Positions 6,813 through 62,230 of a stretch of 64,000 nt of DNA are shown one piece after another (position 1 is the first letter of the stretch; the number at the start of each line of letters is the position of its first letter). A program made the translations under genes and the position numbers. Where the stretch lies: positions 112,003-176,002 of the IMG/VR virus record IMGVR_UViG_3300049049_000237; one strand, given 5' to 3'. The DNA comes from a virus. A model generated the notes under the pieces. That model had not been told where the DNA came from and searched no databases. It worked only from the letters and a program-made list of their open reading frames with translations.

Positions 6813-6820
6813 CCTATCAG
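6813..6820 (+). promoter_or_regulatory. CCTATCAG motif upstream of a plus-strand operon
   Basis: Exact 8-mer repeated ahead of several operon-leading genes; followed here by GGAGG and ATG 6836. Confidence 0.5.
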
Positions 6821-6835
6821 AAACGTGGAGGCGCC

Positions 6836-6994
6836 ATGCCCGATCACGAGCACCAGGACGACCCCACGTACTTCGAGCGCATCGACACGCTCACGCAGTT
6901 CGACGACTTCGTCGCCGACGTCATCAACGCCAACATGTTCCCGCCCGCACACCAGGAGGAGTACGAAGACGATGCTGAATCTTCTGCTGGTTAG
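6836..6994 (+). CDS. Small acidic hypothetical protein (52 aa)
   Basis: GGAGG SD; MPDHEHQDDPTYFERIDT...AG*; codon style matches the genome. Confidence 0.6.
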   Translation: MPDHEHQDDPTYFERIDTLTQFDDFVADVINANMFPPAHQEEYEDDAESSAG

Positions 6995-7085
6995 CATCGC
7001 CGCCGGCTTCCTGATCGGTGTGTCCCACCACCTCTACTACGTCCTCGGGAGGCTGAGCGATGCGACCCGCAACGTTCGCGCATGA
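6972..7085 (+). CDS. Small single-TM hypothetical protein (37 aa)
   Basis: AGGAGG upstream; MLNLLLVSIAAGFLIGV is a hydrophobic helix. Confidence 0.45.
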   Translation: MLNLLLVSIAAGFLIGVSHHLYYVLGRLSDATRNVRA

Positions 7086-7506
7086 CCACGATCACGAGAC
7101 GCCCGACTGTGCCGAGTGCCGCGAGCCGGTCGGCGTGATGCAAGACGCCACCGTGATGCTGAGTGGTCAGTTCTTCTACAACCGCGAAGAGCAGTGCGCC
7201 TTCTTCGTGCTCGACCCCGACAGCGAGCTCGCCATCGTCGAGATCCAGGACGCCCTCGGTAGCGGCAAGCCGCAGCTCGCCATCGTCCTGAACAAGGACA
7301 ACCTCGGCCCGGTGCGCGTGGTGCACGAGGAGTGCCTCGGCGACTTCGACCCCGATGGGGCGAGTGACGAGGACGACGAAGACGATGATGACGAGATCGA
7401 GATTGGTCTCGATCCGGAAGACCCCGACTACCACGACATGAAGATGGCGATCGAGCGTGATCGCAGCGAGTGGGACGAGAACGACCTGCTCCACAGGAGA
7501 CGCTGA
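7060..7506 (+). CDS. Acidic hypothetical protein with possible Zn site
   Basis: CAEC...HEEC and a D/E-rich tract. Confidence 0.65.
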   Translation: MRPATFAHDHDHETPDCAECREPVGVMQDATVMLSGQFFYNREEQCAFFVLDPDSELAIVEIQDALGSGKPQLAIVLNKDNLGPVRVVHEECLGDFDPDGASDEDDEDDDDEIEIGLDPEDPDYHDMKMAIERDRSEWDENDLLHRRR

Positions 7507-7511
7507 AGAAG

Positions 7512-8618
7512 ATGCCCAAGTACTCGGAAGCGCAGCGCCAGGCCGTCCAGGAGCTGACGGTTCAGTGGGAGAGTGGCTACTTGTCGATCCCCGCCCTGCT
7601 CGGGCCGGTGGGGATCGGCAAGACCGACATGGCACAAGAGCTCGCCATCGAGATGAGCTCGAAGATGGACGACTCGCTCATCTTCGAGCCCATCGCCACC
7701 GGTGAGGCCTCGGACCCGACGGACACGTCGGGCATCCCGTGGGTCATCACGGTCGACGACCCGAACGGAGAAGCGACCAAGAAGGACTACCGCGTCCTCT
7801 GGGCGCTGAATCGCGCGGCGTACCAAGCGTGCCGCATGCCCACGCTTCTTCTTTTCGATGACATCGACAAGGCGACCAACATCGTCGTCAACTCGCTGCT
7901 CAACCTCTTCGTGCACCGCCGCTTCAAGGACTTCGCGCTGCACCCGAAGAGCCTGATGATGACCGCGGGCAACCGCACGCAGGACGACATCCACGCGAAC
8001 CGGCTGTCGGAGTCGCTGCGCACCCGCATGACGATCATCGAGGTCGAGGCCGACTTCGAGGACTTCGCCAACTACGCGAAGAAGACCGGCAACATCCACG
8101 ACCACCTCATCGGGTTCCTGACGGCCCGCCCGGAGCTCCTGCACAAGCACGAGGAGAACGTCTACCGGTTCCCGACGCCCCGTGGGTACCGCGAAGCCTC
8201 GCTTCACATGTGGAAGTACCCGGAGTCCGACTGGCCCGACATCGTCGAGCGCAAGCTCGGCAAGCCGGTGCGCAACGACTTCGTCGCCTGGCACAAGATC
8301 CTGTCGAAGGTCGACGTCGAGCACATCCTTCGCGTCGGCTACGTGAAGGACATGCCCACGGACATCGTCGGCAAGAAGATGATGGAGTTCGCCGCCATCT
8401 TCGCGCTCACGATGCACCTCAACAAGAAGGACGGTGTTCAGCCTGGGTGGGCGGGCTTCGACCCGTACATCGACAGCCTGAAGGACTCGCCGGAGATGAA
8501 GATTGCGTTCCTTCTCCAGCTCACGGAGAAGGCGCGCTCTGCCGTGCGCCAACTGTACCCGACCGCCGCCGGCAAGATCATGGCGACGGTCATCGCAGAC
8601 GAGGCGGCCGGGCCGTGA
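7512..8618 (+). CDS. MoxR-like AAA+ ATPase
   Basis: Walker A GPVGIGKT, Walker B LLLFDD, AGN sensor, TPR; adjacent to a VWA gene. Start reassigned to ATG 7512 after AGGAG. Confidence 0.85.
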   Translation: MPKYSEAQRQAVQELTVQWESGYLSIPALLGPVGIGKTDMAQELAIEMSSKMDDSLIFEPIATGEASDPTDTSGIPWVITVDDPNGEATKKDYRVLWALNRAAYQACRMPTLLLFDDIDKATNIVVNSLLNLFVHRRFKDFALHPKSLMMTAGNRTQDDIHANRLSESLRTRMTIIEVEADFEDFANYAKKTGNIHDHLIGFLTARPELLHKHEENVYRFPTPRGYREASLHMWKYPESDWPDIVERKLGKPVRNDFVAWHKILSKVDVEHILRVGYVKDMPTDIVGKKMMEFAAIFALTMHLNKKDGVQPGWAGFDPYIDSLKDSPEMKIAFLLQLTEKARSAVRQLYPTAAGKIMATVIADEAAGP

Positions 8619-9835
8619 TCATCCAGGAGAAGAACCAGGACCTCTACAACCGACGGATGACGAAGGCTGCGACGGCCCTCGTCATCCGCCACCCGTTCTT
8701 CGGGTATCTCCTTTTCGGTAGCTCCGTGAAGGTCGTCGCGCGAGCGATTCCCACGATGGCTACCGACGGGCGCTCGATCTACTGCGGGATCGACTTCGTC
8801 AGCAAGGAGCCGATCGAGATCTTGGAGTTCGGTCTGCTGCACGAGCTGCTGCACATCTACTTCAACCATCACGCGCGACGTGGCTCTCGTGACGCGAAGG
8901 TGTGGAACATCGCCGTCGACATCTTCACGAACGAGCAGTGCTCCCTGCTCCTCTCGCACGACAACGGGAACACGCGCTGGCCGATACCGGCACGCTTCAT
9001 CCAGCCGGCAGAATGGGCGCTGGGCAAGTCGTGCGAGGAGATCTACGACATCTTGATGAAGGCGGAGCAGGACGAGCCTGACGTCCTGAAGAAGCTCCAG
9101 CCTGCGGAAGACGAGCTTGGCAGCGGCAGCGACATGATCCCGATGCCCGAGCCGCTTCCTCGGGGCGTGGATCCGCTCGACCCGCAGGGCTCGAAGGACT
9201 GGCAGGGCTCCTTCCAGCAAGACGTCGCGAGTGCCCGCGCGATGGCCGACAAGACCGTCGTCACGAAGCGCCTGCTGACGGATGCAGTGCGCGATCGGAT
9301 GGCGAAGATCCTCAAGTCCACACTGCCTTGGGGATCGATCCTGCGGGGCGACCTGTCGTACGACCTCGGGTGGGATGAGGCGACGTACTGTCCCCCGAAG
9401 ACGAAGTACTACCCGATCATCCTCCCGCAGACGCGGTCGACCAAGGAGCGAGTCCTGCTCCTGGGCATCGACATCAGCACGAGCGTCACGGACGACCTCA
9501 TCCAGATCTTCATCTCGAATGTGATGTCGGCTGCGATGAAGGCCACCAAGACGGTGGTCGTGACGTTCGACCAGTTCCAGCGCGACTACTACGAGACCAC
9601 CAACCCGAAGACCATCTTCGAGCACGTCAAGTTCAAGTCGGGAGCGCACTACAAGACTTCGGCGATGTGCGTCTTCGAGCACGCAGATCGCCTGAAGCCG
9701 AGCGCCATCTGTCTGCTCACCGATGGGCACATCGAAGTGCCTGAGACCGCATACAAGAACACGACCTTCGTGATTCCCACCGGCGGGGCCCACCTGCCGT
9801 GGGGCCGGCACATCGTGATGGAGTACCAATGGTAG
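8615..9835 (+). CDS. DUF2201-type metallopeptidase-like + VWA domain protein
   Basis: PFFG, ATDG, HELLH and WNIA motifs, then MIDAS DISTS and LTDG. GTGA overlap with the ATPase stop. Confidence 0.85.
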   Translation: MIIQEKNQDLYNRRMTKAATALVIRHPFFGYLLFGSSVKVVARAIPTMATDGRSIYCGIDFVSKEPIEILEFGLLHELLHIYFNHHARRGSRDAKVWNIAVDIFTNEQCSLLLSHDNGNTRWPIPARFIQPAEWALGKSCEEIYDILMKAEQDEPDVLKKLQPAEDELGSGSDMIPMPEPLPRGVDPLDPQGSKDWQGSFQQDVASARAMADKTVVTKRLLTDAVRDRMAKILKSTLPWGSILRGDLSYDLGWDEATYCPPKTKYYPIILPQTRSTKERVLLLGIDISTSVTDDLIQIFISNVMSAAMKATKTVVVTFDQFQRDYYETTNPKTIFEHVKFKSGAHYKTSAMCVFEHADRLKPSAICLLTDGHIEVPETAYKNTTFVIPTGGAHLPWGRHIVMEYQW

Positions 9836-11250
9836 AGATGATGTCTGTGTACGCGTCCCTCGCGCACGCGGTGATGAACGAGCAGCTTCGTCCGGTCTTG
9901 GAGCGGTCGTGGTCCGCGTCCTCCGACGTGACCGGAACGAAGGGCAAGGCGTGGCGCATCGCGCTCTGCGCCTACGGCAAGGACGTGTACACGCTCGGGT
10001 CTCGGATGGGGATTCCGACGAAGAACAGCGTCGGCGGGCACGGGTACTCCGTGTTCACGTGCCCGCGCATCCTCACGCTCGGCATCTCCCCGCTGGAGGT
10101 CTACGGGTACAAGACGATCACGCACTCGACGACCGCCTACACGCCCATCCACCTCGCGACGGCGCTTCTTCGCTTCGCCCCGAGCGAGTACCGCTCGATG
10201 GCCGAGGAGCTCCTACAGCCGGCGTTCCTTCGCAAGTACGCGAAGCACCAGGAGCCGGACGTCGTGTCCATGCGGCTCAACCCGTACGTGCCCGAGGAGC
10301 TCGGACTTCCGTTCAAGCACCTCCCCATCGAGCCCGGCGAGTACATCGACGAGGTCGGGAACCTCGCCTGGTTCACGCCCGAGTACGCGCACAAGTACTT
10401 CGAGCACAAGCTGCGCGAGGGCTTCGTGCGCCTCACGCAGCTCAACCTCGTCCATCGCATGTGGGGCTCGCTCGTCGAATCCGGCGCAGCCGCCGTGCTG
10501 GCGCACGCGAAAGACCGTGAGCTCAGCGACTACCCGCTGCTCACGTTGCGGCTGCGCATGGCGAGTAAGCACAGCGCAGAGAACTTCCTCAACAAGCTCA
10601 CCGGCGTCCGCGGGGTGCTGAACATCGTCCGCGATGACCTGTCCGAGTACCGGATGAAGAAGGGTCTCTCCATCCTCGCGACGACCGGCACCGCTCCCGT
10701 CCGTGCGATGTTCAAGTTCATCGGACGCAAGCTGACGATGGACGACCTGCGTGAGCTGACCCCGCGGCAAGCGCTGGAGATCTGCTTCTACGCACCCCTC
10801 GGGGCCATCGAAGACCTACGCCCGCGAGCAGAAGAACTCGGTGCGATGTTCTTCGGGATCAAGGACCTCCCGATGGGGAAGATCCAGAACGTGGTCTCTG
10901 ATCACGTGCACCGCGCCAAGGAGTGGTACCCGTGCAGCGACGCGGGTATCGCGAGGCAGATGAGCACGAAGACGATCGCTGACGCGAAGTCGGAGTGGGA
11001 CGACACGTACCGTCCCCTCACGCACGAGTTCGTGGAGGCCTACACGTGGCGGAACGACCTCCTCGAAGCGGTCGATCCGGACACGGCGTTCCTCGGGATG
11101 ATGTACGAACTCACCACGGAGGAAGAGTCCGTACCGCGCATCGCGATCGACAACCTGCTCCGCACGCACTCGAACTACGCCAGGCTGAAGGACATCCTCG
11201 CCCGTATGCCTCTTCATCTGCGTAGGATCGGGGGGCTCGACAGAACGTGA
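9829..11250 (+). CDS. Hypothetical protein (about 473 aa), third gene of the AAA/VWA operon
   Basis: Long ORF with genome-typical codons; overlaps the VWA stop and ends at a terminator. Confidence 0.8.
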   Translation: MVEMMSVYASLAHAVMNEQLRPVLERSWSASSDVTGTKGKAWRIALCAYGKDVYTLGSRMGIPTKNSVGGHGYSVFTCPRILTLGISPLEVYGYKTITHSTTAYTPIHLATALLRFAPSEYRSMAEELLQPAFLRKYAKHQEPDVVSMRLNPYVPEELGLPFKHLPIEPGEYIDEVGNLAWFTPEYAHKYFEHKLREGFVRLTQLNLVHRMWGSLVESGAAAVLAHAKDRELSDYPLLTLRLRMASKHSAENFLNKLTGVRGVLNIVRDDLSEYRMKKGLSILATTGTAPVRAMFKFIGRKLTMDDLRELTPRQALEICFYAPLGAIEDLRPRAEELGAMFFGIKDLPMGKIQNVVSDHVHRAKEWYPCSDAGIARQMSTKTIADAKSEWDDTYRPLTHEFVEAYTWRNDLLEAVDPDTAFLGMMYELTTEEESVPRIAIDNLLRTHSNYARLKDILARMPLHLRRIGGLDRT

Positions 11251-11283: not shown

Positions 11284-13164
11284 TCAGCCTGCGCCCGCCA
11301 ACGACAGCCGGCGCGGCGGACGCTGTTCGGGGAGCGGACGCATGTCGACCCCGGAGCTCGTCGGCTTCACGAGGTTCTGGCGCACGAGCTCGCCGAGTTC
11401 CGGCGACGTCTTCGAGAGGTGGGTGAGGTTCTGGTCCTGCACGTCGGCGGGCATCTTGCCGATCTCTGCCGCCAGCGCCGCCGCAGTCTGTCCGAGCGGA
11501 AGTCCTGCGGGTGCCTGAGCGAGCTGAGAGCCCTGCTGCTCGGTGAACGACTGCTGCTGTTCGGCGGCCATGTTCGTCTGCGACTTCAGCGCAGCCTCCG
11601 CCATGATCTCTTGGGCCTGCGCCTGGTAGCGCGCCTGCACGACCATCGCTTCGCCCTGGATCTCCGCCTGCGCGAGCTGCTGCTTCTTCAGCGCCTCCAT
11701 GCGGATCGCCGTCTCCTTCATCTGGAGCTCGGCCTCGTCCTCGACGTTGAAGTCCATCATCGAGATGAGCGACGTGTCGCTGATCTTCTGCATCTGGTTG
11801 AGGCCCTGCGCGAAGGCCATGCGCTGGAGGTCGTCCGCCATCTTGAAGGGCTTGAACTTGGCGGTCGCCACCGGCCAGTTCAGGAAGTGACCGACGCGCT
11901 GCATCGTCCAGCGAAGCAGACGGTACTGGTTCTGCACGTTGGACAAGAAGAAGTTCTCGACCATGCGCATCGACACGCTGGTGCCGGCGTACGTGCCCTG
12001 GCCGAACACGAGGTCGATCGGGAACCCCATCCCGATCGCGATGAGCTCGCCCATCGACCGGATCTCGTTCATCAGCAGCAGGGCGCGGCCGTTCTCGCCG
12101 ATGATCTGGTGGCCGATCGGGAACGGCAGGATGCCGTAGTAGCTCGGGTCCATGCGCTGCCGAGCGAGCTCGCGCTGGATGTGCCCGCGCCAGTCGGCGA
12201 GGTTCACCGTCGAGAACGGGTCTGCACCGGAGGTCGCAGGCTGCGGGTACAGGAAGATCTGCGGGATGAGGTGCGTGAGGAGCACCGTCTCCTGCGCCTT
12301 CTTCATGATCTGCATGTAGAAGGCGTCCTTCAGCACCGGCATGAGGAGCGGGATGCCCCAGCCCATGTCCATGCTCGACAGCGCCGGCCTTCGCATGTGG
12401 AAGACCTCGCGCTTGTCGAAGACGACCAGGCGCTTCTCACGTACCGCTTCGAGGAAGAGCTGCGGCGTCGTCGCGACGATGTCCTTGCGTCCGGTCGTGA
12501 CGAGCGACTTGAACTTCGCGGACATGTCGAGCGCGTAGTCCATGCGCCCGGTCGCTTCGTTGTAGAAGATGGAGACGTTCTCCGGGTTCCACCGGATGAG
12601 CGAGATCTCCGACGCCTTCGGGTAGTAGCGGTCGTGGGCCTTCGCGAAGTTCGACTGGCCGCACTTCGGGCACGTCAGGTAGAAGCGGTGGTCCGTGTAC
12701 CGCCAGTTCCTGGTGTTCTCCTGCGCATCGATCTCCGCGAGGCATCCCTCCTGCGGACACTTGATGTACTTGCGGAACGGGAAGCTCGGCGAGACGAAGG
12801 CGTTGCCGTAGACGTAGTAGTCGAGGTTCACCTCGAACTGGTGCGTCCGGTACTGCATCACGCCGAGCATCTGCTCGCGCCACCGATCGACGACACCCTT
12901 CTCCTTGTGGGCGAAGTTGACGTCGGTGATGGGGTACTCGGCGGCCTTCGTGCAGATCGCGTTGATGATGCCGTGCGTCAGGTAGTAGTACCGGCAGAAC
13001 GCGAACAGGTTCTTGACCGACGCCGGTGTGTACGTGGACGCCTGGTCGAAGAAGGGATTGGCGAAGGGCGCGTACTGCCGCCCGAGGATGTTCGTGCGAC
13101 TGAACGAACCGCTGAGCATCGCTCCGCGGTTCTCCACGATCCCCTGCGGGCCGAAGAACGTCAT
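11284..13164 (-). CDS. Phage portal protein with Zn-ribbon insertion
   Basis: Portal-like segments DYYVYGNAFV, RWNPENV and HMRRP...GWGIPLL; Q/A-rich C-terminal coiled coil; CPQEGC...CPKC insert. Confidence 0.75.
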   Translation of the reverse strand: MTFFGPQGIVENRGAMLSGSFSRTNILGRQYAPFANPFFDQASTYTPASVKNLFAFCRYYYLTHGIINAICTKAAEYPITDVNFAHKEKGVVDRWREQMLGVMQYRTHQFEVNLDYYVYGNAFVSPSFPFRKYIKCPQEGCLAEIDAQENTRNWRYTDHRFYLTCPKCGQSNFAKAHDRYYPKASEISLIRWNPENVSIFYNEATGRMDYALDMSAKFKSLVTTGRKDIVATTPQLFLEAVREKRLVVFDKREVFHMRRPALSSMDMGWGIPLLMPVLKDAFYMQIMKKAQETVLLTHLIPQIFLYPQPATSGADPFSTVNLADWRGHIQRELARQRMDPSYYGILPFPIGHQIIGENGRALLLMNEIRSMGELIAIGMGFPIDLVFGQGTYAGTSVSMRMVENFFLSNVQNQYRLLRWTMQRVGHFLNWPVATAKFKPFKMADDLQRMAFAQGLNQMQKISDTSLISMMDFNVEDEAELQMKETAIRMEALKKQQLAQAEIQGEAMVVQARYQAQAQEIMAEAALKSQTNMAAEQQQSFTEQQGSQLAQAPAGLPLGQTAAALAAEIGKMPADVQDQNLTHLSKTSPELGELVRQNLVKPTSSGVDMRPLPEQRPPRRLSLAGAG

Positions 13165-13173
13165 GTGCGGATA

Positions 13174-14070
13174 CTACCCGATCTGCGCAGGGGCGGGACG
13201 TGATCCACCGAGAGCACGCCCGACCCGACCGCTGAGATACTCGACACCCTGACCCACGACGTTCTGCGAGAGCATCGGAAGTCCGCTGAATACGAGACCT
13301 CCGCCGATGTTGCCCACGGCACGCATCGACTTCTCGCCGAGCGATCGACCACCCGCCGCACTCTCGTCACCACGTGCGAGATCGGCCCCGCTGACTGCGA
13401 CAGGCACGCCGACGCCAGCGGCGACGCCGAGACCACCGCCGAGACGAAGCTGATCCCACACGGCCTTCGACGCAGCTCGCGGGTCCTTAGCGAAAGCCTT
13501 CACCGCTCCCGGCGCGTGGGTCATGCCGAGGTCACGCATGCGATCGCCGACATCACCTTCGGCGAAGTGAGCTCGCATGCTCGCTGCCTGCTCTGCACTG
13601 TTCACGCTGCCAGGGCTGTGCTTCGCGAGATCCTGTGCGCGCAGCGTGTCGAGATGAACTCGCTTCGCCGCAGTGCCGCTTCCCGTGATGCCGATGCGAT
13701 CGAGGTACGCTTTGTCGTTCGCTCCGTGCCCGGTGATCCCGTGCACCTGACGACGAGCGAAGTTGCCGACGCCCTCCCCTGCTCGCGCCAGCGTCGCCTT
13801 CGCGACGTCCTTCGCGCCCGAGAGCTGCGGGTTGAGCAGCATCGTGTCGCGCGCACCACGGCCGATCGCCGCGACGCCGGCACCGGCGAGGCCGCCGCGC
13901 AGCGCACCCAGCACGCCACCAGCGACGTAGTTCTTCTCGCCCTCTCCGCGAGCGGCCTCACGCGCTACGCCGAGCGCGCCGCCGAGCCCCGCCCCGATCG
14001 CAGAGGTGCTGCCCGGGTTGTGTGCGATGAACCGCCCTGCGCTGCTGAGGATGTTCGCGTGCTTGTTCAT
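13174..14070 (-). CDS. Gly/Ala-rich glycine-zipper protein, putative internal virion protein
   Basis: Repeated GxxxG helices; starts MNKHA; lies in the head module. Confidence 0.7.
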   Translation of the reverse strand: MNKHANILSSAGRFIAHNPGSTSAIGAGLGGALGVAREAARGEGEKNYVAGGVLGALRGGLAGAGVAAIGRGARDTMLLNPQLSGAKDVAKATLARAGEGVGNFARRQVHGITGHGANDKAYLDRIGITGSGTAAKRVHLDTLRAQDLAKHSPGSVNSAEQAASMRAHFAEGDVGDRMRDLGMTHAPGAVKAFAKDPRAASKAVWDQLRLGGGLGVAAGVGVPVAVSGADLARGDESAAGGRSLGEKSMRAVGNIGGGLVFSGLPMLSQNVVGQGVEYLSGRVGRALGGSRPAPAQIG

Positions 14071-14660
14071 CTCGACGCTCCATGCGCGGCCGACGTGAGC
14101 AGGGCGGTACCGAGCCCGTACGCGCCCGGCGTCAGGTACGTGCTCCCGAGGCGCAGCGCTTCATGACGAAGATGCTTGAGCTGCTCGGGCGTCGCCCCGT
14201 GCTCCTTCAGCATCTGGTGACCCTTCATCCACGCAACGCCCTCGCCGGCAAGGAGAGGAGCTTGCGATGCCGCGACGCCCAGCGAGCTGAGAGTCGCCTT
14301 TCGCGCGAGGTTGCCCTCTGCGATGAGGGCGATGACCATCCCGATGAGCGGCCCGAGCCCGGACACGGCCCTGGCGTTGCCGTCCTGCACGATGCGCCCG
14401 AGCGTCGTCTTGTCGAACTCGGCGTGGCCGAGTTCGTGAGCGAGCGTCGAGAGCCCATCGTCCGTTCCTTCGAGGCGCTTCGAGAGGCTGACGAGTGGCT
14501 TCCCCTCAGCACCGGCACGATCGAAGTGCGCCCCGACGGTGTTCTCGTTGTACTCGACCTTCGTTCCCTTCTCTCGGGCGCGGTTCAGCAGCGCGTCGGT
14601 CATCCGCTGACGCGCGCCGTCGTCCTGTAGGACATCACCGAGAGAAGGCTTGGGCATCAT
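14067..14660 (-). CDS. Zincin-like (HExxH) protein with hydrophobic helices
   Basis: LAHELGHA plus downstream GEGVAW; ATGA overlaps with both neighbours. Start reassigned to 14660. Confidence 0.7.
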   Translation of the reverse strand: MMPKPSLGDVLQDDGARQRMTDALLNRAREKGTKVEYNENTVGAHFDRAGAEGKPLVSLSKRLEGTDDGLSTLAHELGHAEFDKTTLGRIVQDGNARAVSGLGPLIGMVIALIAEGNLARKATLSSLGVAASQAPLLAGEGVAWMKGHQMLKEHGATPEQLKHLRHEALRLGSTYLTPGAYGLGTALLTSAAHGASR

Positions 14661-15637
14661 CCACCCTTGAGCATCCGGAGCTGCGCGATGAGCTGCGCCC
14701 GCACCTGATTGCGGTACTCGTTGTTGATCAGCAGCTTGTACACCGCCGACCCGACGGCGTCCTCGCCGAGCCCGTCGACGGCCTGTTCGAGCGGCTTCTT
14801 CTTGCGCGCGTCGAAGGCCGCCTTCGTCTGGTCTCGGATGTCTCCGAACTCCAGCGGCAACCGCGTGAGCTTCTTCGACCCGCACGCGACGCACTTCACG
14901 TCGTGGTCGTCACGCTCGATGGTCCCGCACTCGCCGCACTTGATCTTCTGGTCGTCGAGCTCTTCCTGCGCGAACTGAAGCGGAGGGGGCACGTAGGTCA
15001 CGCCGGTGTCCCGGCACGCCACGGCCACGAACTTCGCCACCTCCTCGGCGAACGGACGCGGCCGATCGATGTGCTTCATCGTGTCGACCGCCGCCATGAG
15101 GAAGCCGAGCTGGGGCTTCTCCATGAACTTGAAGTTGGGGGCCCTGCCGGCGAGGCCGAGCGAGATCCAGTGGAACTGCTCCCACTGCCTCCACGGCGAC
15201 GGACTCGTGATGAGCACCCGCGTCGCGAGGATCTTCGTCCACACCGACTCGGACAGGAGCGTGTCGTCCTTCTTCAGCGTGAGCTTCAGCGTCTCGGGCT
15301 CCCACTCCACATAGTCCTGCCCGTAGCGGTCCATCAGGAGCAAGGAAAGAACGAGCGGGTGCGCGTTCGGGTGCCGCCAGATGTTCTTCTGCGTCACCAT
15401 CGGCAGGTCGTCGTCCGTACCGAGACGCTTCGCTGCCGTCTTCTCGATGCCCGAGGGCAGCTCCGCCATCCAGTCGGGCAGGTCCACACGGACCGAGCCG
15501 ATGATCAGCTCCGGCGAGACGTCCGAATGATCCAACGAAGGAGCAGCCACCTTGGACTGCTCCTCCAGGATCTGCGGGTCCACGGTGGCGACGGGGTGAG
15601 GCCACCGCATCCAGTTCATGTTCTGGTTCATGTTCAC
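14657..15637 (-). CDS. Hypothetical protein with Zn ribbon
   Basis: CGECG...CVACG; ATGA-coupled within the operon. Confidence 0.75.
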   Translation of the reverse strand: MNMNQNMNWMRWPHPVATVDPQILEEQSKVAAPSLDHSDVSPELIIGSVRVDLPDWMAELPSGIEKTAAKRLGTDDDLPMVTQKNIWRHPNAHPLVLSLLLMDRYGQDYVEWEPETLKLTLKKDDTLLSESVWTKILATRVLITSPSPWRQWEQFHWISLGLAGRAPNFKFMEKPQLGFLMAAVDTMKHIDRPRPFAEEVAKFVAVACRDTGVTYVPPPLQFAQEELDDQKIKCGECGTIERDDHDVKCVACGSKKLTRLPLEFGDIRDQTKAAFDARKKKPLEQAVDGLGEDAVGSAVYKLLINNEYRNQVRAQLIAQLRMLKGG

Positions 15638-16941
15638 CGCTGGTAGCTGTCGGAGGCGAGACGCGCCAGGACGACCTTCTGCGGATCGGGCATCGAGGAG
15701 AAGACCGCGATCGGGTCCTTCTGGAAGCTCTTCCGCACGTCCTCACCGAACGCCTGCTGGACGAGCTGCCACTGGGTGGACGCGAGGTTCTTCAGCATCT
15801 CGTCGCTGACGTAGTCGTTGCCCTCCGACCACGACCAGCTCTCGTTCTTGGCGTACTTGCCGAACGTCGCCTGGAACGGATCGCGGAAGCCGAGGGGCCG
15901 GTTGTAGTAGGCGTTCGCTCCCGTGTGCTGGTCGAGCTCCGCGAGCATCTCGACCATCACGGAGGGCGGGGTGCTCGCCTTCTTCTCCATCAGCACGTGG
16001 TACGCGTGCTCGTGGCCGGTACCCTCGTAGTTGCGGATGCGCGTGACGAGCTCGCTGTCGATGTGCGGGCCGTACTCGTGACCGGCGTACTTCTGTGTGG
16101 CGCCGCGAACGGGGAGCCCGAGCTCCTCCAGGCGGGCGGCGAGGTTCACCGCGAACTCGCGGCGATCGTCGAGGGAGAACAGCGAGTAGTGGTCGTCGAA
16201 GTAGACCGACGCCTGCTTCACGTGCTCGTACTGATCGAGCGGGTACTTCTCCTGCGAAGGCAGGGCGAAACGCGTGACCACCATCGCGACCTTCTCCTTC
16301 GGGCGGTGCGCGGTGATGTCGCCGCAGTGCTCCCAGCCCGCCTTCTTCATCGCCGACGAGCCTGCCGTGGGCTTCGCGGTGTCCCGGCGGCTCGGCCACG
16401 TCGAGATGCTGCCGGACATCGGCATCATTTCCGTGCCGTTCAGGTCCGCCTTCTTCTGCATGTCGGACGTGAGCCCTGCCTGGGCGAGGCGGAAGCCTTC
16501 CATCGAGGACTTCGCCGCCTGGCTGCCGTGAACCATGCGGTCCTTGGCCGATGCGAGGTGACCCGCTGCGTCGATCACGCCCGAGATGCCCGCCATCTTC
16601 AGCAGGTCTTCGGGCGGCTGGACGTCGTACCACTCGCACGCGCCGACGAGGTTGCGCGCCGCGGTCTTGCGAGCCTGCTCCGGCAGGAGGTGCGATCGCT
16701 CCATGAAGTACATGACCGACGTGGCGAGGTGCCCCGAATCGTGCATCGCGTACTTCCGGACTGTCTCTCCGGCGTTCTGGGCGACGAGCGCGAACATGCG
16801 GTCGGGCAGCCGACCGAGGTCCTCCTGGCTCATCAGCTCCATGTCGAGTGAGGGAGGAAGCTCGGCACCGGCCAGCTTCGTCACGAGAAGCGACGCGTTC
16901 GCGTCGTCGTAGATGTCGAGGATCACGCCCGCGAGATGCAT
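15634..16941 (-). CDS. KxA-motif-rich protein, putative head/scaffold-associated
   Basis: About 11 K-x-A tripeptides. Start reassigned to ATG 16941 (MHLAGVILD), 6 nt after TACCCT. Confidence 0.75.
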   Translation of the reverse strand: MHLAGVILDIYDDANASLLVTKLAGAELPPSLDMELMSQEDLGRLPDRMFALVAQNAGETVRKYAMHDSGHLATSVMYFMERSHLLPEQARKTAARNLVGACEWYDVQPPEDLLKMAGISGVIDAAGHLASAKDRMVHGSQAAKSSMEGFRLAQAGLTSDMQKKADLNGTEMMPMSGSISTWPSRRDTAKPTAGSSAMKKAGWEHCGDITAHRPKEKVAMVVTRFALPSQEKYPLDQYEHVKQASVYFDDHYSLFSLDDRREFAVNLAARLEELGLPVRGATQKYAGHEYGPHIDSELVTRIRNYEGTGHEHAYHVLMEKKASTPPSVMVEMLAELDQHTGANAYYNRPLGFRDPFQATFGKYAKNESWSWSEGNDYVSDEMLKNLASTQWQLVQQAFGEDVRKSFQKDPIAVFSSMPDPQKVVLARLASDSYQR

Positions 16942-16947: not shown

Positions 16948-16977
16948 AGGGTACGGCAGGCACGACAGAACGGTCAA
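16948..16977 (-). promoter_or_regulatory. Sigma70-like leaderless promoter of the head operon
   Basis: TTGACC-N18-TACCCT-N6-ATG, the same geometry and -35 as the RNAP promoter. Confidence 0.65.
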
Positions 16978-16981
16978 ACGA

Positions 16982-16989
16982 CCTATCAG
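16982..16989 (+). promoter_or_regulatory. CCTATCAG motif upstream of the replication operon
   Basis: Exact 8-mer; GGAGG SD and ATG 17016 follow. Confidence 0.5.
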
Positions 16990-17015
16990 GAAAATGAACG
17001 CTCTAACGGAGGTTT

Positions 17016-17648
17016 ATGTCCCTCGAACCCGAGGTCGGGAACAATATCGGGCCGACCAACAAGAACATGAACTGCGACTCGTGGGGAACCTACGAATCGC
17101 CCAACTCCTCGCCCACCGCCTCCCTGTGCAACGGCGGTACGCTCGACGGCCATCTGTGGGCCGAGTGCCCTTCGCGCGAGGACTGCCGCAAGGAGCGTAA
17201 CCAGCGAGTGCTCGCAGATGCGCGAGCTCGCTCGGGACGCACGCATCTGCCCACGGTCTCGCCGGCATCGCAGGTACGCTTCGTCGGAGGGCAGACGCAG
17301 CGCCCGTTCTCTGGTACCACCTCTTCTCCCGCAGCAACGACCATCCCCCAGCGCCCGGTGGGGGTACCCGCCCAGATCCACAAGGCCGAATCCGGCAACC
17401 CCTACATCGACACGCCTCGCGTGCTCGCGCCTACGCGGCCGGGCATGCACTCGCCCACGTTCCTGCCGAACAAGAAGGAGCACTGGGCAACCCGCCTCTT
17501 CAAGAACATGGTCCAGGGCGCGTTCAACGCGTTCGGCTGGCACATCCACGACCTCACGCAGCACGTCGACCTCTTCCCCTATCAGGACGACGAGCAGCAC
17601 ATCCTGCCCCCTTCCACGCCTCCCGCGGAGGATAACGAGAAGAGATGA
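17016..17648 (+). CDS. Hypothetical protein with N-terminal Cys cluster and Pro-rich linker
   Basis: GGAGG SD; four Cys in the N-terminal 60 aa. Confidence 0.75.
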   Translation: MSLEPEVGNNIGPTNKNMNCDSWGTYESPNSSPTASLCNGGTLDGHLWAECPSREDCRKERNQRVLADARARSGRTHLPTVSPASQVRFVGGQTQRPFSGTTSSPAATTIPQRPVGVPAQIHKAESGNPYIDTPRVLAPTRPGMHSPTFLPNKKEHWATRLFKNMVQGAFNAFGWHIHDLTQHVDLFPYQDDEQHILPPSTPPAEDNEKR

Positions 17649-19036: not shown

Positions 19037-19047
19037 GAGACAGGAAC

Positions 19048-19572
19048 ATGGACATCATCAACAAGAGCAGCGTGCAGGACACCCTTCCTTCGATCGAGAT
19101 GTGGACCGGGCTGGAGCGACCGCGCCTCAGGCTCTCCGACTCGGATGCCGTGTTGCGTGTGCACATCAACCCGGCAGACCGCGAGTACCGCTGGCTTGAT
19201 CACGTCGTCCTGCTGCCCTGGTTCGCGCCGCAGCGCGTTCTCGGCTTCGTCCACCCGAGGATGATGGAGAAGGTGGGCCAGGAGCCGTTCATGCTGCACG
19301 CCGCATGCATGTACAACGCGAACCACGCGCTCCAGCCGGTGAACGGCAACCAGATGCGCGTCGTGGAGGGGCCGAAGATCACGCTGCCCTACGACCTCAT
19401 CGATCCGATGAACATCCGCATCTACCGCTGCCCGTCGGCCATCTTCCTCGCCGACCAGTCGCCGCGGACGCGTGAGGTGTTCGCGGCGATGCTCATCCAG
19501 GTCCTCGCCCCGACGCAGATCGAGCTCGCGGACCCCGGGAAGGTGCCGCCCCAGCGGGGTCAGCGCGGATGA
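19048..19572 (+). CDS. Hypothetical protein (174 aa)
   Basis: AGGA SD; ATGA coupling to the next gene. Confidence 0.7.
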   Translation: MDIINKSSVQDTLPSIEMWTGLERPRLRLSDSDAVLRVHINPADREYRWLDHVVLLPWFAPQRVLGFVHPRMMEKVGQEPFMLHAACMYNANHALQPVNGNQMRVVEGPKITLPYDLIDPMNIRIYRCPSAIFLADQSPRTREVFAAMLIQVLAPTQIELADPGKVPPQRGQRG

Positions 19573-20306: not shown

Positions 20307-20737
20307 TGTCCAAGCAGACCGCATTCGCAGCGAAGACCGCATACGAGCAGGCCCTGGCCCAGTACGAGGCGTTCCGCGCGGAGCACGCCGACGTCTTCGA
20401 GGAGCACGACCATCTCGCCGTCGCCCTCCAGGAGGCGTTCGACGCGATGAAGAACGAGTACAAGGAGAACCACAAGATCCTGGGTCGCCAGTTCGCCGGC
20501 ATGAAGCTCTCCGTCCCGCGCGAGCTCAAGGTCGACGTTCTCATCGAGGAGCTGGGCGAGGACGAGGTCGAGAAGTTCAGCTTCGTCAAGAAGAAGCTGA
20601 GCATCGACGCGAAGGAGTGGGACAAGGCCGTCTCGGCTGGCGTGATCGATCGCTCGCTCGCCGAGAAGGTCGAAGGCGAAGGTTCTCCCCGCATCACCGG
20701 TGGTCCGCGCTCGCTGCCGACCATCTACCAGCCGTAG
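20306..20737 (+). CDS. Hypothetical protein (143 aa)
   Basis: TGATG coupling; helical and charged. Confidence 0.75.
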   Translation: MSKQTAFAAKTAYEQALAQYEAFRAEHADVFEEHDHLAVALQEAFDAMKNEYKENHKILGRQFAGMKLSVPRELKVDVLIEELGEDEVEKFSFVKKKLSIDAKEWDKAVSAGVIDRSLAEKVEGEGSPRITGGPRSLPTIYQP

Positions 20738-22449: not shown

Positions 22450-22562
22450 CGCTGCCCGTACGCACGGTCACCACGCGAACCACACAACCGATTGTGGTCC
22501 GCGGGACGTGCTTGCGGGCGCGCGTTTCCTTCTCCAGTATCGCCCTCCCCCGGAGGTTCGAG

Positions 22563-24197: not shown

Positions 24198-24199
24198 AC

Positions 24200-25234: not shown

Positions 25235-25245
25235 GGAAAGACGAG

Positions 25246-26532: not shown

Positions 26533-26538
26533 GCCGAG

Positions 26539-28542: not shown

Positions 28543-28552
28543 AAGGAAAGAC

Positions 28553-56817: not shown

Positions 56818-57612
56818 TCACGGCAGGTACGGCTTCGCCTTCTTGAAGATGGCCGAGCGAAGCTGGTAGACGCGGCTCTTGTTCATGCCGGTGCGCTTCG
56901 CGATTTCAGCCATCGAGGCGGGAGAGCCGTTCGAGGGGAAGAGCTGATCGAAGACCTTCTTCTCCTCGGACGTGAGCAGCGACGGCATCAGCGAGATGAT
57001 GCTGCGCATCTGGCTCGGGGCGTGCCCCAGGCTCCCGTCATCGGCCGCCTCGGGGTTCGGGTTGCCGCCGATGTAGTGCTCAGTCCGGACCTCGACCATC
57101 AGGCGCTGGATGTCGTTCGGCTTCACGTCCGGAAGCCGCTGCGAGATCTCGTGGGCTGAGGGCTCACGCCCGAGCTCGTCGTGGAGCTCGTTCTTCGCGT
57201 TCTGGACGCGCTGGTAGAGGTCGACGCGGTTCTTCGGGATGCGGGCGAAGTTGCGGTTCGCGGCCACGAAGTCGGTGACGCGCTGAAGCCCCGTGGTCAC
57301 CCACGTCTGGAGCTTGGCGCCGCCGCTGTCCGGGTTGAAGCTCTCGATGCTCTTCTTCGCTGCGAGTCGGAGCTGGGTCTCCATCGCGCCGTACGGGATC
57401 GACCCGCCGACGCCTCTGGTGCGCGTGCGCGCCTGCTTCTGGATGACGTGCTCGAACGCATCGAGCAGCGGTACGAGGTCGCGCTCCTGGCGACCTCCCG
57501 CATGCCACTTGCGCCAGAGCTCCTCGTGCGGGTCGGCAGACTTCGGCTTCGAGCCGAGCTCCTGACGAGCCGTTCTGTTGAACTCGGTGATCTTCTTGTT
57601 GGTGCTCATCAC
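56818..57612 (-). CDS. Sigma70-family RNA polymerase sigma factor (group 3, FliA/SigB-like architecture)
   Basis: Region 2 SIESFNPDSGGAKLQTWV, RIP, region 3 LGREPSAHEI, region 4 HTH MAEIAKRTGMNKSRVYQL. Confidence 0.85.
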   Translation of the reverse strand: MMSTNKKITEFNRTARQELGSKPKSADPHEELWRKWHAGGRQERDLVPLLDAFEHVIQKQARTRTRGVGGSIPYGAMETQLRLAAKKSIESFNPDSGGAKLQTWVTTGLQRVTDFVAANRNFARIPKNRVDLYQRVQNAKNELHDELGREPSAHEISQRLPDVKPNDIQRLMVEVRTEHYIGGNPNPEAADDGSLGHAPSQMRSIISLMPSLLTSEEKKVFDQLFPSNGSPASMAEIAKRTGMNKSRVYQLRSAIFKKAKPYLP

Positions 57613-57914
57613 TTCGTCGCGGCGTTGTGCCGACCGACGGCCTGAGCTGCCGCAGACGCGCCGGAAATCTCCGACACCTTGTCGTGAAGGAGACGTCCGA
57701 TCGTGCCGCGGAGATCGGCCACCGACGGCTGGAAGTTGGTGAATGCGCGACGGAGCTCTCCCTGCCGGGTCTCCTCGGCACGTTCGCGCGTGAGCGGCGT
57801 GAACGGCTCCGGATGGTTCTGCACCGACGGGCTCTCGCCCGGCGGCTGGATGCTGTTCGTTCCCGACACGACGCTCTCGTTGAGAGCGAGCTCCATCGCC
57901 AGCTTGCTGATCAT
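57609..57914 (-). CDS. Hypothetical protein (101 aa) upstream of sigma
   Basis: AAGGA SD; begins MISKLAMEL; stop overlaps the sigma start. Confidence 0.6.
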   Translation of the reverse strand: MISKLAMELALNESVVSGTNSIQPPGESPSVQNHPEPFTPLTRERAEETRQGELRRAFTNFQPSVADLRGTIGRLLHDKVSEISGASAAAQAVGRHNAATK

Positions 57915-57928: not shown

Positions 57929-57936
57929 CTGATAGG
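57929..57936 (-). promoter_or_regulatory. CCTATCAG motif upstream of the sigma operon
   Basis: Exact 8-mer in the 26-nt intergenic gap, 14 nt before ATG 57914. Confidence 0.5.
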
Positions 57937-58636: not shown

Positions 58637-61600
58637 CTATCCGAGGATGCCGCGTGTAGCCAAGATGGCGTGGACGTAGCGAAGCACCGCGAGGCGCTTC
58701 TCCTTCCGCGTGTCCATCCGTTGAGCGCGCTGGGCATCTCGTGCAGCGCGCTGTTGGGATGCCGGATCGGAAGCGTCTTCTTCATCCATCGTCGTGAGGC
58801 CGAGGATCGTCTGCGGACGCCTCTCTCCATCGACGCTTCGGATGAGCTGACGCAGATCGTCGAAGTCGCCGAACGCACGGCTGTGGAAGCCCTCCACTCC
58901 GCGCACGACCTCGCCGTTGTCGTCGATCTCCAAGTTGGCGGTGCCGAACATGTCGACCATCGACGCGATGCGCCTCCACGTGTACGAGCGCAGGAAGTCG
59001 TCGACGTCGAAGCGGTTGCGCTTGATCGCCGAGTACGAGTCGACGAGAGACGTGACGGCCTCCTCGATCGAGCCACGTCCGGGGATCTCTCCGACGCGTG
59101 TCGAGTCGCCGGGCTCGCCGGGAGCTCCCACGACTTCCGGTCGCTGACTGTCGAGGAACTCCGGCTCGGTCTCGGGCCTCGTCACGTGCGGCTGCGTGGT
59201 GTCCCCCGTCGACGCCGTCGAACGGAGAATCCCATCAACTTCTTCTTGCGTCAGCGTCGCCGAGCGACCGGTGGGATCCACGATGATGGTGGGATCCACG
59301 ATCGAGCCCGTGCCGAAGAAGTACCCGTAGAGGGCACCGATGTTCTGGCTCCGGTAGTGCTCGCCGTACCAGGGCGGGAACGTGAGGTCCTCGGCCGGCA
59401 GATCCACCGACTCGCGTCGGTAGACACCGAGACGCTCGGTGATGCGGTACGCGCGGAAGGTCACCTCGACCTCCGTGAGCGTCGCCTCATCACCGGCGTT
59501 CCCGGTGCCCTGGGCGCTCACGAACGACGACTGCGTGCCCCCAACGCTCCCGACGAGCGCTGCGACTTCAGGAACGGAGGATGCCGGTACGGGGGTGCCC
59601 ACGATGACGCGGGTGCCCCGCGTGCGGCCCGTTCGGGGACCGGGGATGAAGAGGGGAAGCCGCGACCGCGAGACGTAGCGCTGCTGGCCCGTCGCAGATG
59701 TCGAGCGGCGTCCACGCACCGGCCGTGCTCGCTGATCGCGCTGGTACTCGTCCGTGACGTCTTCGATCCGGAGAATCTCCCCACCACGCGGACCTACCGT
59801 CCCTTCCCCCGGGGGCTCGATCATCGCGACGACAGTCCTCGTCTCGATGTTCCGAGTGCGCCGGTAGCGACGCACCTGGTATCGATCATCACCCAGGAAC
59901 TCGGTGCGCTCGTCGGTGACGCGCGCGTACGCCATCTGCACCTGCGTCGTGCCGCCCGTCTCGGCGGAGATGCTGTGCGTGATCGCTGCGGGGGTGCCGA
60001 GGTAGTGGCTGTTGGGCTGCTGCTCCGTCAGCTCGCGGACGAGCTCGTCGACGCGAGTCTCTTCGAGCTCAAGCTGCCGCTGACGCTCTTCCTCGGGGAG
60101 GTTCGAGCCGACGCCGGTGCCTTCGCCCTCGCGGCTCTGCTGCGCGATGCGGCGTGCGATCTCCAGGTCGACTTCGACATCGGAGGAGTTGATGAGGTCG
60201 CGCGACTTGTACTTGTCGACGACGAGAGCAGGGAACCCGAGGACACAGAACGGGTTGAACTTGCCGGCCAGCACGAGCTGCCTGCTGCGGAAGCGGTACT
60301 GGAAGAAGATGTGGTTCGCCGCGAGCTGCGCATACCCGACGCGCACGCCGTCGATCATGATCGAACCGCCACGCAACGCGTGCAGGTTCAAGTCGCTCAT
60401 GCGCTCGAACTTCGGGATGATCCCGGTGAAGAGCTCGTGGTCCATCATGTCGCGGACGAACCACGCCGGGGCATCAGCGAGATCGGGCGGCTCCACACCG
60501 ACACGGCCACGGCCGATGTCCGCTCCCGTGCGCACGCCGAGGACCTTGTTCGGGGCCATGTAGTAGCCGTCGAACAAGAAGTCGGAGCCGAAGAACGCGG
60601 AGTGGGTGCGCAGCATGAGCCGCGAGACCTCCTCCATGTACTGCCGGCTGTACGAGAAGTTCGAGTAGAGCTCGGGGAAGAAGACGTTGCAGCGCGGCGG
60701 CGCGACCATCCAGACGTCCGGCCGGTAGATCTGCTGGAGCAGGCGAGGCGGAGGGTCGGGCTGCTGCGTGTTGCTGCGCACGCGACGACGCACCTCGGCG
60801 TTGCAGACCTCCTCCATGTCCGCCGCGATCTGCTCGCAGAGCAACGTGAGCTCCTGCGCCTCGGGCGTCCCGGGCGGGAAGAACGTGTTGCTCCGGACGT
60901 CCATGCGCTGAGCTCGGCGCGTGGAGTTGTCCTTCATGCGGTCGAAGCGCTCCTGCGCGACGACGAACTTCTGGTGGATCTGGAGGTTGCTCACGAACGT
61001 GGTGCGCTCACGCACCGCGAGACGACGAGACAGGCCTCCTGCGCGGCCGCACGTGCGCGACAGACGATCGAGCTCGTTCGCGAGGCCGCCGTTGCGCTGC
61101 GAAAGACGACGAGCATCTTCGGGCGTCGTCGAGTCCGCCTGCCGCTGCTTCAGGTCGAGGGCCCGCTGCTTCACGAGGCGTGCTGCGCGGATGACCTCCG
61201 TGTAGCTCGACTCGCTGGTGATGGGTGCCGTCTCGAACTGCGGCCTGTTCGGGTCGACCAGCGCCGGGATGAAGTGCGGCGAGGTGACGGGAATCACCTC
61301 GTGGAAGATGTAGCGCTGGAGCGCGTTGAGGACGTCGCGGATCGAGACCTGCCGACCCAGGCCCGACAGCGCGCGGCGGAAGAGACTCCCGAAGCCGTTC
61401 GCGTGGAGCAGACGCACTTCGTTCTGCTGCTCGAACGGGTTCGCCCCAACCATCTGCGTGATCTTCAGCCGGAGCTCGGCGAGGCTGAAGAAGTCGTTCA
61501 CGCCGCGGATCGCACGCTGCCCGTACGTCACACCGCCGATCGCTTCGATGAGGTGCACGACCGCGCCGAGCAGCGTGCCCCGCAGGTTCGGGTAGCTGCG

Positions 61601-62188
61601 GGGTGCCGTGTTCATCAGGCCCGTGACGATGTCCGCGTTTCCCTCCAAGAAGGAGTTGAACACGTTGGTCGCAGCGCCCGTGAAGGCTGCCCGGATGCCA
61701 CCGCCCCCAAGCTCGAACCCGTTCACCTGGTACTGGAACGCGTAGTCCCAGTACATCGAGAAGTCCATGCACTGGAGCACGATGCTTCGCGACGTCGGCG
61801 TCTTGTCCATGCCGAAGCCCACGAGCTCGCCTGCGAAGAGCAGACGGTAGTTCTCGTTCTCCAGGTCAGCCGCTTCTTGAGCGTCCGTGACCTCCAGCCT
61901 CTCAGGTGGGATGATCCCGTCGAGCTCTGGATCGCGCTCGCGGGTATCGATCGCCATGTTCTCGCCCGCGACCCACGCGCGCTCCGTCGGCGGAGCACCT
62001 CGATAGAAGTCGTAGAAGAACAGGTGGATCAGCGTACGCGGCTTGAGTTGAAGCGCGTAGTCGTTCGCCGGGATCTGGATCGATGCGACAGCGGGCTGGT
62101 TGGGTTGCGACTGCACCACAGCCGAGATCACAGGGATCTCGATGCCCTCTGCGAAGCAACGAAGATGCAGTCTCTGTGCGATCGTCAC
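58637..62188 (-). CDS. Large tail / baseplate hub-like protein (1183 aa)
   Basis: Hub-like N-terminus (A.IQIP...LLFAGEL...LQCMD) and G.FNP....G.P segment; lies in the tail module. Confidence 0.6.
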   Translation of the reverse strand: MTIAQRLHLRCFAEGIEIPVISAVVQSQPNQPAVASIQIPANDYALQLKPRTLIHLFFYDFYRGAPPTERAWVAGENMAIDTRERDPELDGIIPPERLEVTDAQEAADLENENYRLLFAGELVGFGMDKTPTSRSIVLQCMDFSMYWDYAFQYQVNGFELGGGGIRAAFTGAATNVFNSFLEGNADIVTGLMNTAPRSYPNLRGTLLGAVVHLIEAIGGVTYGQRAIRGVNDFFSLAELRLKITQMVGANPFEQQNEVRLLHANGFGSLFRRALSGLGRQVSIRDVLNALQRYIFHEVIPVTSPHFIPALVDPNRPQFETAPITSESSYTEVIRAARLVKQRALDLKQRQADSTTPEDARRLSQRNGGLANELDRLSRTCGRAGGLSRRLAVRERTTFVSNLQIHQKFVVAQERFDRMKDNSTRRAQRMDVRSNTFFPPGTPEAQELTLLCEQIAADMEEVCNAEVRRRVRSNTQQPDPPPRLLQQIYRPDVWMVAPPRCNVFFPELYSNFSYSRQYMEEVSRLMLRTHSAFFGSDFLFDGYYMAPNKVLGVRTGADIGRGRVGVEPPDLADAPAWFVRDMMDHELFTGIIPKFERMSDLNLHALRGGSIMIDGVRVGYAQLAANHIFFQYRFRSRQLVLAGKFNPFCVLGFPALVVDKYKSRDLINSSDVEVDLEIARRIAQQSREGEGTGVGSNLPEEERQRQLELEETRVDELVRELTEQQPNSHYLGTPAAITHSISAETGGTTQVQMAYARVTDERTEFLGDDRYQVRRYRRTRNIETRTVVAMIEPPGEGTVGPRGGEILRIEDVTDEYQRDQRARPVRGRRSTSATGQQRYVSRSRLPLFIPGPRTGRTRGTRVIVGTPVPASSVPEVAALVGSVGGTQSSFVSAQGTGNAGDEATLTEVEVTFRAYRITERLGVYRRESVDLPAEDLTFPPWYGEHYRSQNIGALYGYFFGTGSIVDPTIIVDPTGRSATLTQEEVDGILRSTASTGDTTQPHVTRPETEPEFLDSQRPEVVGAPGEPGDSTRVGEIPGRGSIEEAVTSLVDSYSAIKRNRFDVDDFLRSYTWRRIASMVDMFGTANLEIDDNGEVVRGVEGFHSRAFGDFDDLRQLIRSVDGERRPQTILGLTTMDEEDASDPASQQRAARDAQRAQRMDTRKEKRLAVLRYVHAILATRGILG

Positions 62189-62222
62189 GCCAGGAGCCTA
62201 CGTGAATACCGTGGAAAAAGCA

Positions 62223-62230
62223 CCTATCAG
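62223..62230 (+). promoter_or_regulatory. CCTATCAG motif upstream of the small-ORF/tRNA unit
   Basis: Exact 8-mer 4 nt before ATG 62235. Confidence 0.5.

Follow-up and report, generated by a model that had tools for sequence, protein, structure and literature searches.

The octamer CCTATCAG, which recurs ahead of genes in a 64,000-nucleotide (nt) stretch of a phage genome (bases 112003 to 176002 of the 191,681-bp IMG/VR record IMGVR_UViG_3300049049_000237, graded complete by CheckV; hereafter, the window), probably serves as an extended -10-type promoter for two products of the phage itself, a sigma-70-family factor and a single-chain beta-beta' RNA polymerase (RNAP), an enzyme that is probably delivered with the virion. 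The word was enriched, consistently oriented, placed just ahead of genes, and conserved in close relatives, and its architecture was common to distant relatives. From these sequence features we infer its function as a promoter, the enzyme that would read it, the position at which transcription would start, and the time at which it would fire.

Copies and placement of the octamer

A codon model trained on long open reading frames (ORFs) called 263 genes, with 93% of the sequence coding; the measured G+C content was 64%, and the host is taken to be a high-GC bacterium. Within the window, CCTATCAG was found five times, against a mean expectation of 0.5, and 0 of 100 dinucleotide-preserving shuffles reached five copies. 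The copies listed in an earlier note on this DNA, at 6813, 16982, 17578, and 62223 on the plus strand and at 57929-57936 on the minus strand, were all confirmed. Four of the five lie in short intergenic gaps and are oriented with the downstream gene, as that note had also described; they stand 4 to 26 nt ahead of a start codon. Over the 192 kb of the whole genome, 13 copies were found and the reversed word was absent. Ten of these 13 copies were intergenic, although noncoding sequence makes up 7% of the genome (binomial P about 8e-10), and all 13 pointed toward the next gene; the three copies inside genes were each 19-59 nt ahead of the next gene start.

The genes downstream of the copies in the window were also as previously described. 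The box at 6813-6820 (plus strand) heads a unit (6836-11250, plus strand; first ORF at 6836) that encodes an AAA ATPase and a DUF2201/VWA-like protein; here the extended element described below spans about 6807-6831, and the RTG that forms part of it is GTG at 6825-6827. The box at 16982-16989 (plus strand; RTG, ATG at 16994-16996) heads the replication unit (17016-34682, plus strand), which encodes SF2 helicase, DnaB, primase, DNA polymerase, UvsX-like, and Cas4-like proteins. The box at 57929-57936 lies within a minus-strand block, 14 nt ahead of an ORF of 101 amino acids (aa) (57609-57914, minus strand; function not known), which is the first gene of a pair completed by the sigma factor gene (56818-57609, minus strand). 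The box at 62223-62230 (plus strand) heads a unit that includes a small ORF (62235-62378) and tRNA-Asn (62518-62592). The remaining copy, at 17578-17585 (plus strand), lies within ORF 17016-17648, 59 nt ahead of the SF2 helicase start; it codes for Pro-Tyr-Gln, has ACG where RTG would be expected, and is replaced by CCTATGAG in the ortholog of a close relative (G002, below), so its role as a promoter is doubtful.

The motif had been proposed to head the plus-strand operons. This description holds within the window but not across the genome, where 6 of the 13 copies head left-arm units of the minus strand; CCTATCAG is thus tied to a class of genes and not to the plus strand.

A one-mismatch scan of the bare 8-mer revealed no overall enrichment (14 found, 26 expected). 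Real one-mismatch variants differed solely at box positions 1, 6, and 8 and were accompanied by the downstream context. Two candidates were left uncounted: the variant TCTATCAG at 32278, which is in an unbroken reading frame (Val-Tyr-Gln), and a weak matrix match at 34008 that was without the core. At the box at 62223, the RTG is also the ATG (62235) of the 47-codon ORF 62235-62378. Transcription starting at the G of this ATG would require the ORF to begin at a later ATG, and transcription starting at the A would leave the ORF leaderless.

An extended element conserved in close relatives

Comparison genomes were three IMG/VR contigs retrieved by an RNAP protein search (67-82% protein identity) and a fourth retrieved with the sigma factor; these relatives are labeled G001, G002, G003, and G008, and the genome of the window is G000. 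A nucleotide search of the phage collection returned no match. Exact copies of CCTATCAG numbered 11 in G001, 3 in G002, 4 in G003, and 13 in G008, nearly all of them intergenic, with a ribosome site and then a start codon downstream.

When the spacer that separates the RNAP gene from the AAA/VWA unit was aligned across four genomes, only two islands were conserved, the flanks having diverged. The first comprises the box, conserved in G002 and G003 and present as CCTATCAA in G001, and a downstream RTGGAG. The second, on the opposite strand, comprises TTGACC and TAGACT separated by 18 nt; the leaderless GTG of the RNAP gene follows 6 nt later. The replication-unit box at 16982 had an exact ortholog in G002 and the form CCTATAAG in G003, the box before the sigma pair was exact at the same place in G001 (32466) and in G008, and the box before the tRNA unit had an exact ortholog in G001 at 28175. 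The aligned copies gave the consensus WAWTnn-cCTAT(C/A)A(G/A)-nARn-RTG-RR. Positions 1, 6, and 8 of the box were changeable (GCTATCAG, CCTATAAG, and CCTATCAA), and CTAT and the next A were fixed.

A weight matrix identified 74-79 sites in four genomes (about 30 in G000), compared to 0-5 for the reversed matrix. Across 73 matrix sites, the TAT of the hexamer was invariant, with the forms TATCAG, TATAAG, and TATCAA; the last position was G in 54/73 sites, A in 18/73, and never T. Downstream of the hexamer, T was found at 6 nt in 53/73 sites and G at 7 nt in 58/73. The same 73 sites contained no -35 element, with no position from -45 to -7 relative to the box exceeding 0.41 bit, and upstream of the box just a weak R-A at -18/-17 was detected. 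A hairpin and T-run stood directly before the site in 11 of 81 cases, compared to 0.8% of random positions, and the box was the sole conserved element between terminator and ribosome site at these terminator-abutting sites. Because upstream transcription has just ended where the box follows a terminator, this layout points to a promoter and not to a signal in RNA, and it is the strongest internal argument for that function.

Two further features were considered as general parts of the element and rejected. The first was a common 5' hairpin on the predicted transcripts: the 40 nt after RTG had less structure than random stretches of the genome (mean, -7.4 versus -9.9 kcal/mol), and hairpins after RTG were found in a subset of sites only. 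The second was RTG as a general start codon: ORFs opening at RTG shared the frame of the gene at roughly the rate expected by chance, and in Salmonella phage Arash (below), RTG is usually followed by TAA.

Related boxes in Salmonella phage Arash and Vibrio phage D69

Based on the RNAP, the nearest cultured relatives were Salmonella phage Arash (31%) and Vibrio phage D69 (28%), and the nearest sigma factor was that of Arash. An unbiased search for 8-mers enriched upstream of genes returned GGTATAAG in Arash (31 copies, versus 4 in the control) and GTTATAAG in D69 (19 copies, versus 5). Exact CCTATCAG was not enriched in either phage (1 copy versus 8 in the control in Arash; 5 versus 6 in D69). 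The Arash word occurs in the context GGTATAAG-tAAr-GTGTAA, with the general form GGTATAAG-nAAr-RTG, and the D69 word in the context GTTATAAG-nAAy-AT(G/A), i.e., tGTTATAAG-nAAy-AT(G/A). All three boxes are 8-mers that end in TAT(A/C)AG and are followed by an A-rich 4-nt spacer and RTG; all are strictly oriented with genes and head nonstructural units, and they belong to phages that encode related bacterial-type RNAPs and, in Arash, a related sigma factor. They differ in the dinucleotide ahead of the hexamer, which is CC in CCTATCAG, GG in Arash, and GT in D69, and in hexamer position 4 (C here, A in Arash and D69), and the RNAP is a single chain here, whereas Arash has separate beta and beta' genes. 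The pattern NN-TAT(A/C)AG, 4 nt, RTG, compared with its reversed form in six genomes, gave counts of 8/0, 18/3, 3/0, 2/0, 18/7, and 21/5, a rule obeyed by the cultured phages Arash and D69.

Thirty of the Arash copies are on the minus strand, on which an ORF-based strand map places the genes from about 18 to 109 kb; this region was taken as the nonstructural arm from the strand map, not from gene functions. The sole plus-strand copy, at 11588, lies 4 nt ahead of gp9, a small ORF before the sigma gene gp10. Three complete uncultured Arash-like genomes had the same 30-plus-1 pattern, with the odd copy preceding the sigma pair in each. A box directly before the small ORF that precedes sigma was thus found in the window (57929), G001, G008, Arash, and four Arash-like contigs, in the form GGTATAAG in the last two. 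No sigma gene was located in D69, and the 101-aa ORF of the window had no detectable similarity to Arash gp9. Since the design is common to phages of very different hosts and is always accompanied by a phage RNAP and, where found, a phage sigma factor, those proteins are the likely readers. Arash virions contain abundant beta, beta', and sigma (PMC10585845), and by analogy the RNAP encoded here is probably carried in the virion. Promoters are not mentioned in the Arash paper (PMC10585845), literature searches on the motif words and on Arash promoters returned no description of these boxes, and inspection by eye of the Arash structural genes revealed no clear promoter class.

Two other arrangements were seen in these phages. 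In Arash, GGTATAAG boxes at 59089 and 61257 flank tRNA genes: one immediately follows the 3' end of a tRNA and the other immediately precedes a tRNA-like sequence, an arrangement that parallels the box before tRNA-Asn in the window. At 68703 and 87295 in Arash and at 97464 and 135019 in D69, the box is followed within about 20 nt by a hairpin and T-run; such promoter-terminator pairs would yield very short RNAs or serve as attenuators.

A -10-like hexamer and the phage sigma factor

The sigma70 consensus has TATAAT as its -10 element, with T-12 and A-11 the most conserved positions, and in its extended form, TGnTATAAT, it does not need a -35 element. The earlier note had judged the box to be unlike a sigma70 -10, a view that the comparison contradicts. 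TATCAG equals TATAAT at four of six positions (T-12, A-11, T-10, and A-8), and in the TATAAG of variant copies and relatives only -7 differs, G replacing T there, as it also does in Arash and D69. With the hexamer placed at -12 to -7, the conserved T and G occupy -1 and +1 and match the pyrimidine-purine step at which transcription usually starts. Judged by its sequence, CCTATCAG is a diverged -10 element (TATCAG, with G at -7). With extended -10 promoters it shares a single upstream-extended -10-like element with T-12, A-11, T-10, and A-8, the lack of any conserved -35, a pyrimidine-purine step at the distance canonical for a start, and a sigma factor with regions 2 to 4 encoded beside one copy. 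It differs from them in having G instead of a near-invariant T at -7 and in the bases before the hexamer, which are CC here and GG in Arash and not TG, with only D69 (tGT-TATAAG) fitting TGn; in addition, the phage sigma factor is without the Trp dyad of region 2.3, and the reader is probably a phage core enzyme.

The phage encodes a candidate cognate sigma factor and proposed box reader, a 263-aa protein with Sigma70_r3 (Pfam, 3e-9) and a weak r4 match that aligned to regions 2 to 4 of SigA/RpoD in PDB chains. Its orthologs were 56% identical in G001 and 26% identical in Arash (gp10). Individual residues were read from one phmmer pairwise alignment to PDB chain 7l7b_F (SigA) with Escherichia coli sigma70 numbering. 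In that alignment, the equivalents of Q437 and T440, the residues that read -12, were retained, the W433/W434 dyad was absent, and K, S, and Y occupied the positions of the -35-contact residues R584, E585, and R588. This residue pattern fits a reader of a -35-less promoter with an altered -10. The most likely catalytic partner of the sigma factor is the single-chain RNAP (519-6746, minus strand; 2,075 aa), which has Pfam domains Rpb2_6, Rpb2_3, Rpb1_1, Rpb1_2, and Rpb1_5 on one chain.

Two probable promoter classes

Units headed by the box included those for replication, topoisomerase II, DNA ligase, a hydrolase, AAA/VWA, and tRNAs, as well as many small ORFs and the ORF-sigma pair. None of the operons for the sheath, capsid (major head protein), terminase, or RNAP was preceded by a box site; these operons instead carried TTGACC-N18-TAnnnT leaderless promoters, a class that looks host-type in its sequence. 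Two such promoters lie on the minus strand of the window. That of the RNAP gene has TTGACC at 6782-6777, 18 nt, TAGACT at 6758-6753, 6 nt, and a leaderless GTG at 6746; the other has TTGACC at 16977-16972, 18 nt, TACCCT at 16953-16948, 6 nt, and a leaderless ATG at 16941. The window has three divergent spacers, and in two of them a box and a TTGACC-N18-TAnnnT-N6-RTG leaderless promoter occupy opposite strands. Within 16972-16989, just 4 nt separate the CCTATCAG box from the -35 of the divergent promoter, and the two polymerases may exclude each other there. Three of the four box spacers, their sequences read directly, contained no host-type TAnnnT on the same strand as the box.

In the left arm of G000 (1-75 kb), dozens of gaps of 50-400 nt between small minus-strand genes had neither a box nor an obvious TAnnnT leaderless promoter, and a third class of signal may operate in these gaps.

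Proposed mechanism and points against it

The evidence can be assembled into the following mechanism. CCTATCAG would be read as positions -14 to -7, that is, CC and the hexamer TATCAG, a TATAAT derivative with G at -7. The element would include the A/T-rich patch just upstream, an A-rich discriminator, and an RTG 5-7 nt downstream as the expected start, with no -35. A holoenzyme composed of the single-chain core and the sigma factor, probably injected with the DNA, would recognize the 8-bp box via sigma regions 2 and 3, open the DNA from A-11, and start within RTG. The nonstructural units would then be transcribed, and more sigma would be made. The structural and RNAP genes would rely on the host-type leaderless promoters, and at abutting signals, binding to one could impede the other.

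A broader proposal can be advanced tentatively, with somewhat less than even confidence: the box may act as an early promoter for a holoenzyme that is self-contained and delivered by the virion, made up of a single-chain core lacking alpha and omega and a true sigma factor that uses a -10 with G at -7. This enzyme would drive all nonstructural genes and its own sigma, and the host polymerase would transcribe the structural genes from the leaderless promoters of host type.

Several points weigh against assigning CCTATCAG to the phage holoenzyme. Both the promoter function and the start site are deduced from sequence, in this phage and in its relatives alike. Starting at RTG would give some leaders of just 8-10 nt, with the Shine-Dalgarno sequence at the 5' end (for example, at 6813). 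The annotated ATG of gp9, the ORF before sigma, coincides with the RTG in Arash-like phages, which makes the exact start (A or G of RTG) uncertain. Three of the 13 exact copies are in ORFs, and at least that at 17578 may be due to chance, about 1.5 chance copies per genome being expected; the copies at 17578 and 32278 sit in reading frames as Tyr-Gln codons and may not function. Many left-arm gaps have no box, and hence other signals must exist. The sequence is also compatible with the sigma factor acting on either the phage or the host core, or with another factor reading the box.

Alternative explanations

That the motif is a promoter for the phage RNAP had been suggested before. The part of this suggestion that the comparisons strongly support is that the box is a promoter of the phage's own machinery, to which its orientation, its position, the terminator-then-motif layout, the close relatives, and the boxes of Arash and D69 all point; the parts that do not hold up are the denial of -10 likeness and the proposed cascade. 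In that cascade, the phage RNAP would read the box without sigma, alone or with another factor, and sigma would then direct the TTGACC/TAnnnT leaderless structural genes. This order of events would account for a sigma pair that is itself box headed, for leaderless promoters at the structural and RNAP operons, and for a sigma factor with regions 3 and 4 like those of -35-reading sigmas. However, a bacterial-type core enzyme requires a specificity factor, and the -10 likeness of the box is a hallmark of recognition by sigma region 2. Region 4.2 of the phage sigma is without the sigma70 residues for a TTGACA-type -35, which, given the TTGACC -35 of the TAnnnT class, argues against its reading that class. 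The Arash sigma, moreover, is packaged with the RNAP, so that a holoenzyme is present before any gene is expressed. The cascade is therefore unlikely, and it is more likely that sigma reads CCTATCAG.

Slightly less likely still is that the phage sigma steers the host core RNAP to CCTATCAG, as do SPO1 gp28 and T4 gp55, while the phage RNAP is otherwise occupied. Capture of the host core is the textbook case for phage sigmas, and this one is closest to group 1/2 cellular sigmas. Against this, sigma and RNAP co-occur in the lineage (Arash and the clade of the window) and are copackaged in Arash, and the architecture, which recurs in phages that infect Salmonella, Vibrio, or a high-GC host, therefore tracks phage-encoded parts.

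The earlier note had itself offered a regulator-binding site, at which a phage activator or repressor would bind, always at the same position, within promoters that are otherwise weak. Such a site would be consistent with a word that is short, invariant, and dispersed and that in two spacers lies near the -35 of the divergent promoter. The word, however, is asymmetric and strictly oriented with transcription, has its own -10-like hexamer and an RTG at a fixed distance, and is accompanied by no other conserved core promoter element nearby, which leaves a regulator site with a low probability. Action in RNA, as a processing site, 5' untranslated region, or translation signal upstream of ribosome sites, would explain why a gene start always follows the motif, often at a distance of 15-45 nt, and why the in-gene copies stand just before the next gene, yet it is very improbable because the distance to the start codon ranges from 4 to >200 nt, sites after terminators are not transcribed from upstream, and conservation reaches the upstream A/T-rich patch with no common RNA fold downstream.

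Comparison with other phage transcription systems

T4 late promoters carry TATAAATA, whose recognition by gp55 on the host core involves gp33 and the sliding clamp. As in T4, a phage-specific 8-bp -10-type box would here constitute the whole promoter, with no -35. T4, however, uses the host core, the minimal sigma gp55, and a coactivator for late structural genes, whereas the phage studied here has a sigma with regions 2 to 4 and its own core, and its box serves nonstructural genes, with no copy at the sheath, capsid, or terminase operons. Coliphage N4 has a virion RNAP of the T7-like kind, with one subunit, whose promoters are hairpins. The likeness to N4 lies in a possible division of labor, with an injected phage polymerase for early genes and the host polymerase for late or structural genes; the difference is that no hairpin forms part of the box. 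The phiKZ-like and AR9-like jumbo phages have multisubunit bacterial-type RNAPs, one form of which is in the virion, and short phage-specific promoters without a -35 (PMC7598289, PMC7824862). A phage-encoded bacterial-type RNAP and short -35-less promoters are common to those phages and this one, but their enzymes have four or five subunits and no sigma-family factor, in contrast to the one fused chain and true sigma found here.

If the proposed holoenzyme is real, an N4-like inverted division of labor would have been built from bacterial-type parts in a lineage spanning Salmonella, Vibrio, and high-GC hosts. The box would provide a concrete promoter for a little-studied system, a bacterial-type RNAP with a true sigma that is virion carried in Arash. 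If the sigma prefers G at -7, where cellular sigmas almost always need T, it would amount to a natural experiment in -10 recognition and a possible source of orthogonal promoter/sigma pairs. By dividing the genome cleanly into two programs, the box may also aid the annotation of many unknown genes.

Neighboring genes

The plus-strand units of the window are separated by two minus-strand blocks. One, at 11284-16941, lies between the AAA/VWA and replication units. The other is a long block at 34884-62131 that encodes very large proteins of unknown function and has the sigma gene inside it. Upstream of the sigma pair in this block, a 1,164-aa protein (58637-62131, minus strand) was weakly similar (23% over 212 aa; E value, 5e-7) to Arash gp8, a 1,165-aa virion "cell wall hydrolase." Together with its position, this similarity indicates a syntenic neighborhood: the order of large virion protein, small ORF, and sigma matches that in Arash, with an extra 228-aa gene in between here.

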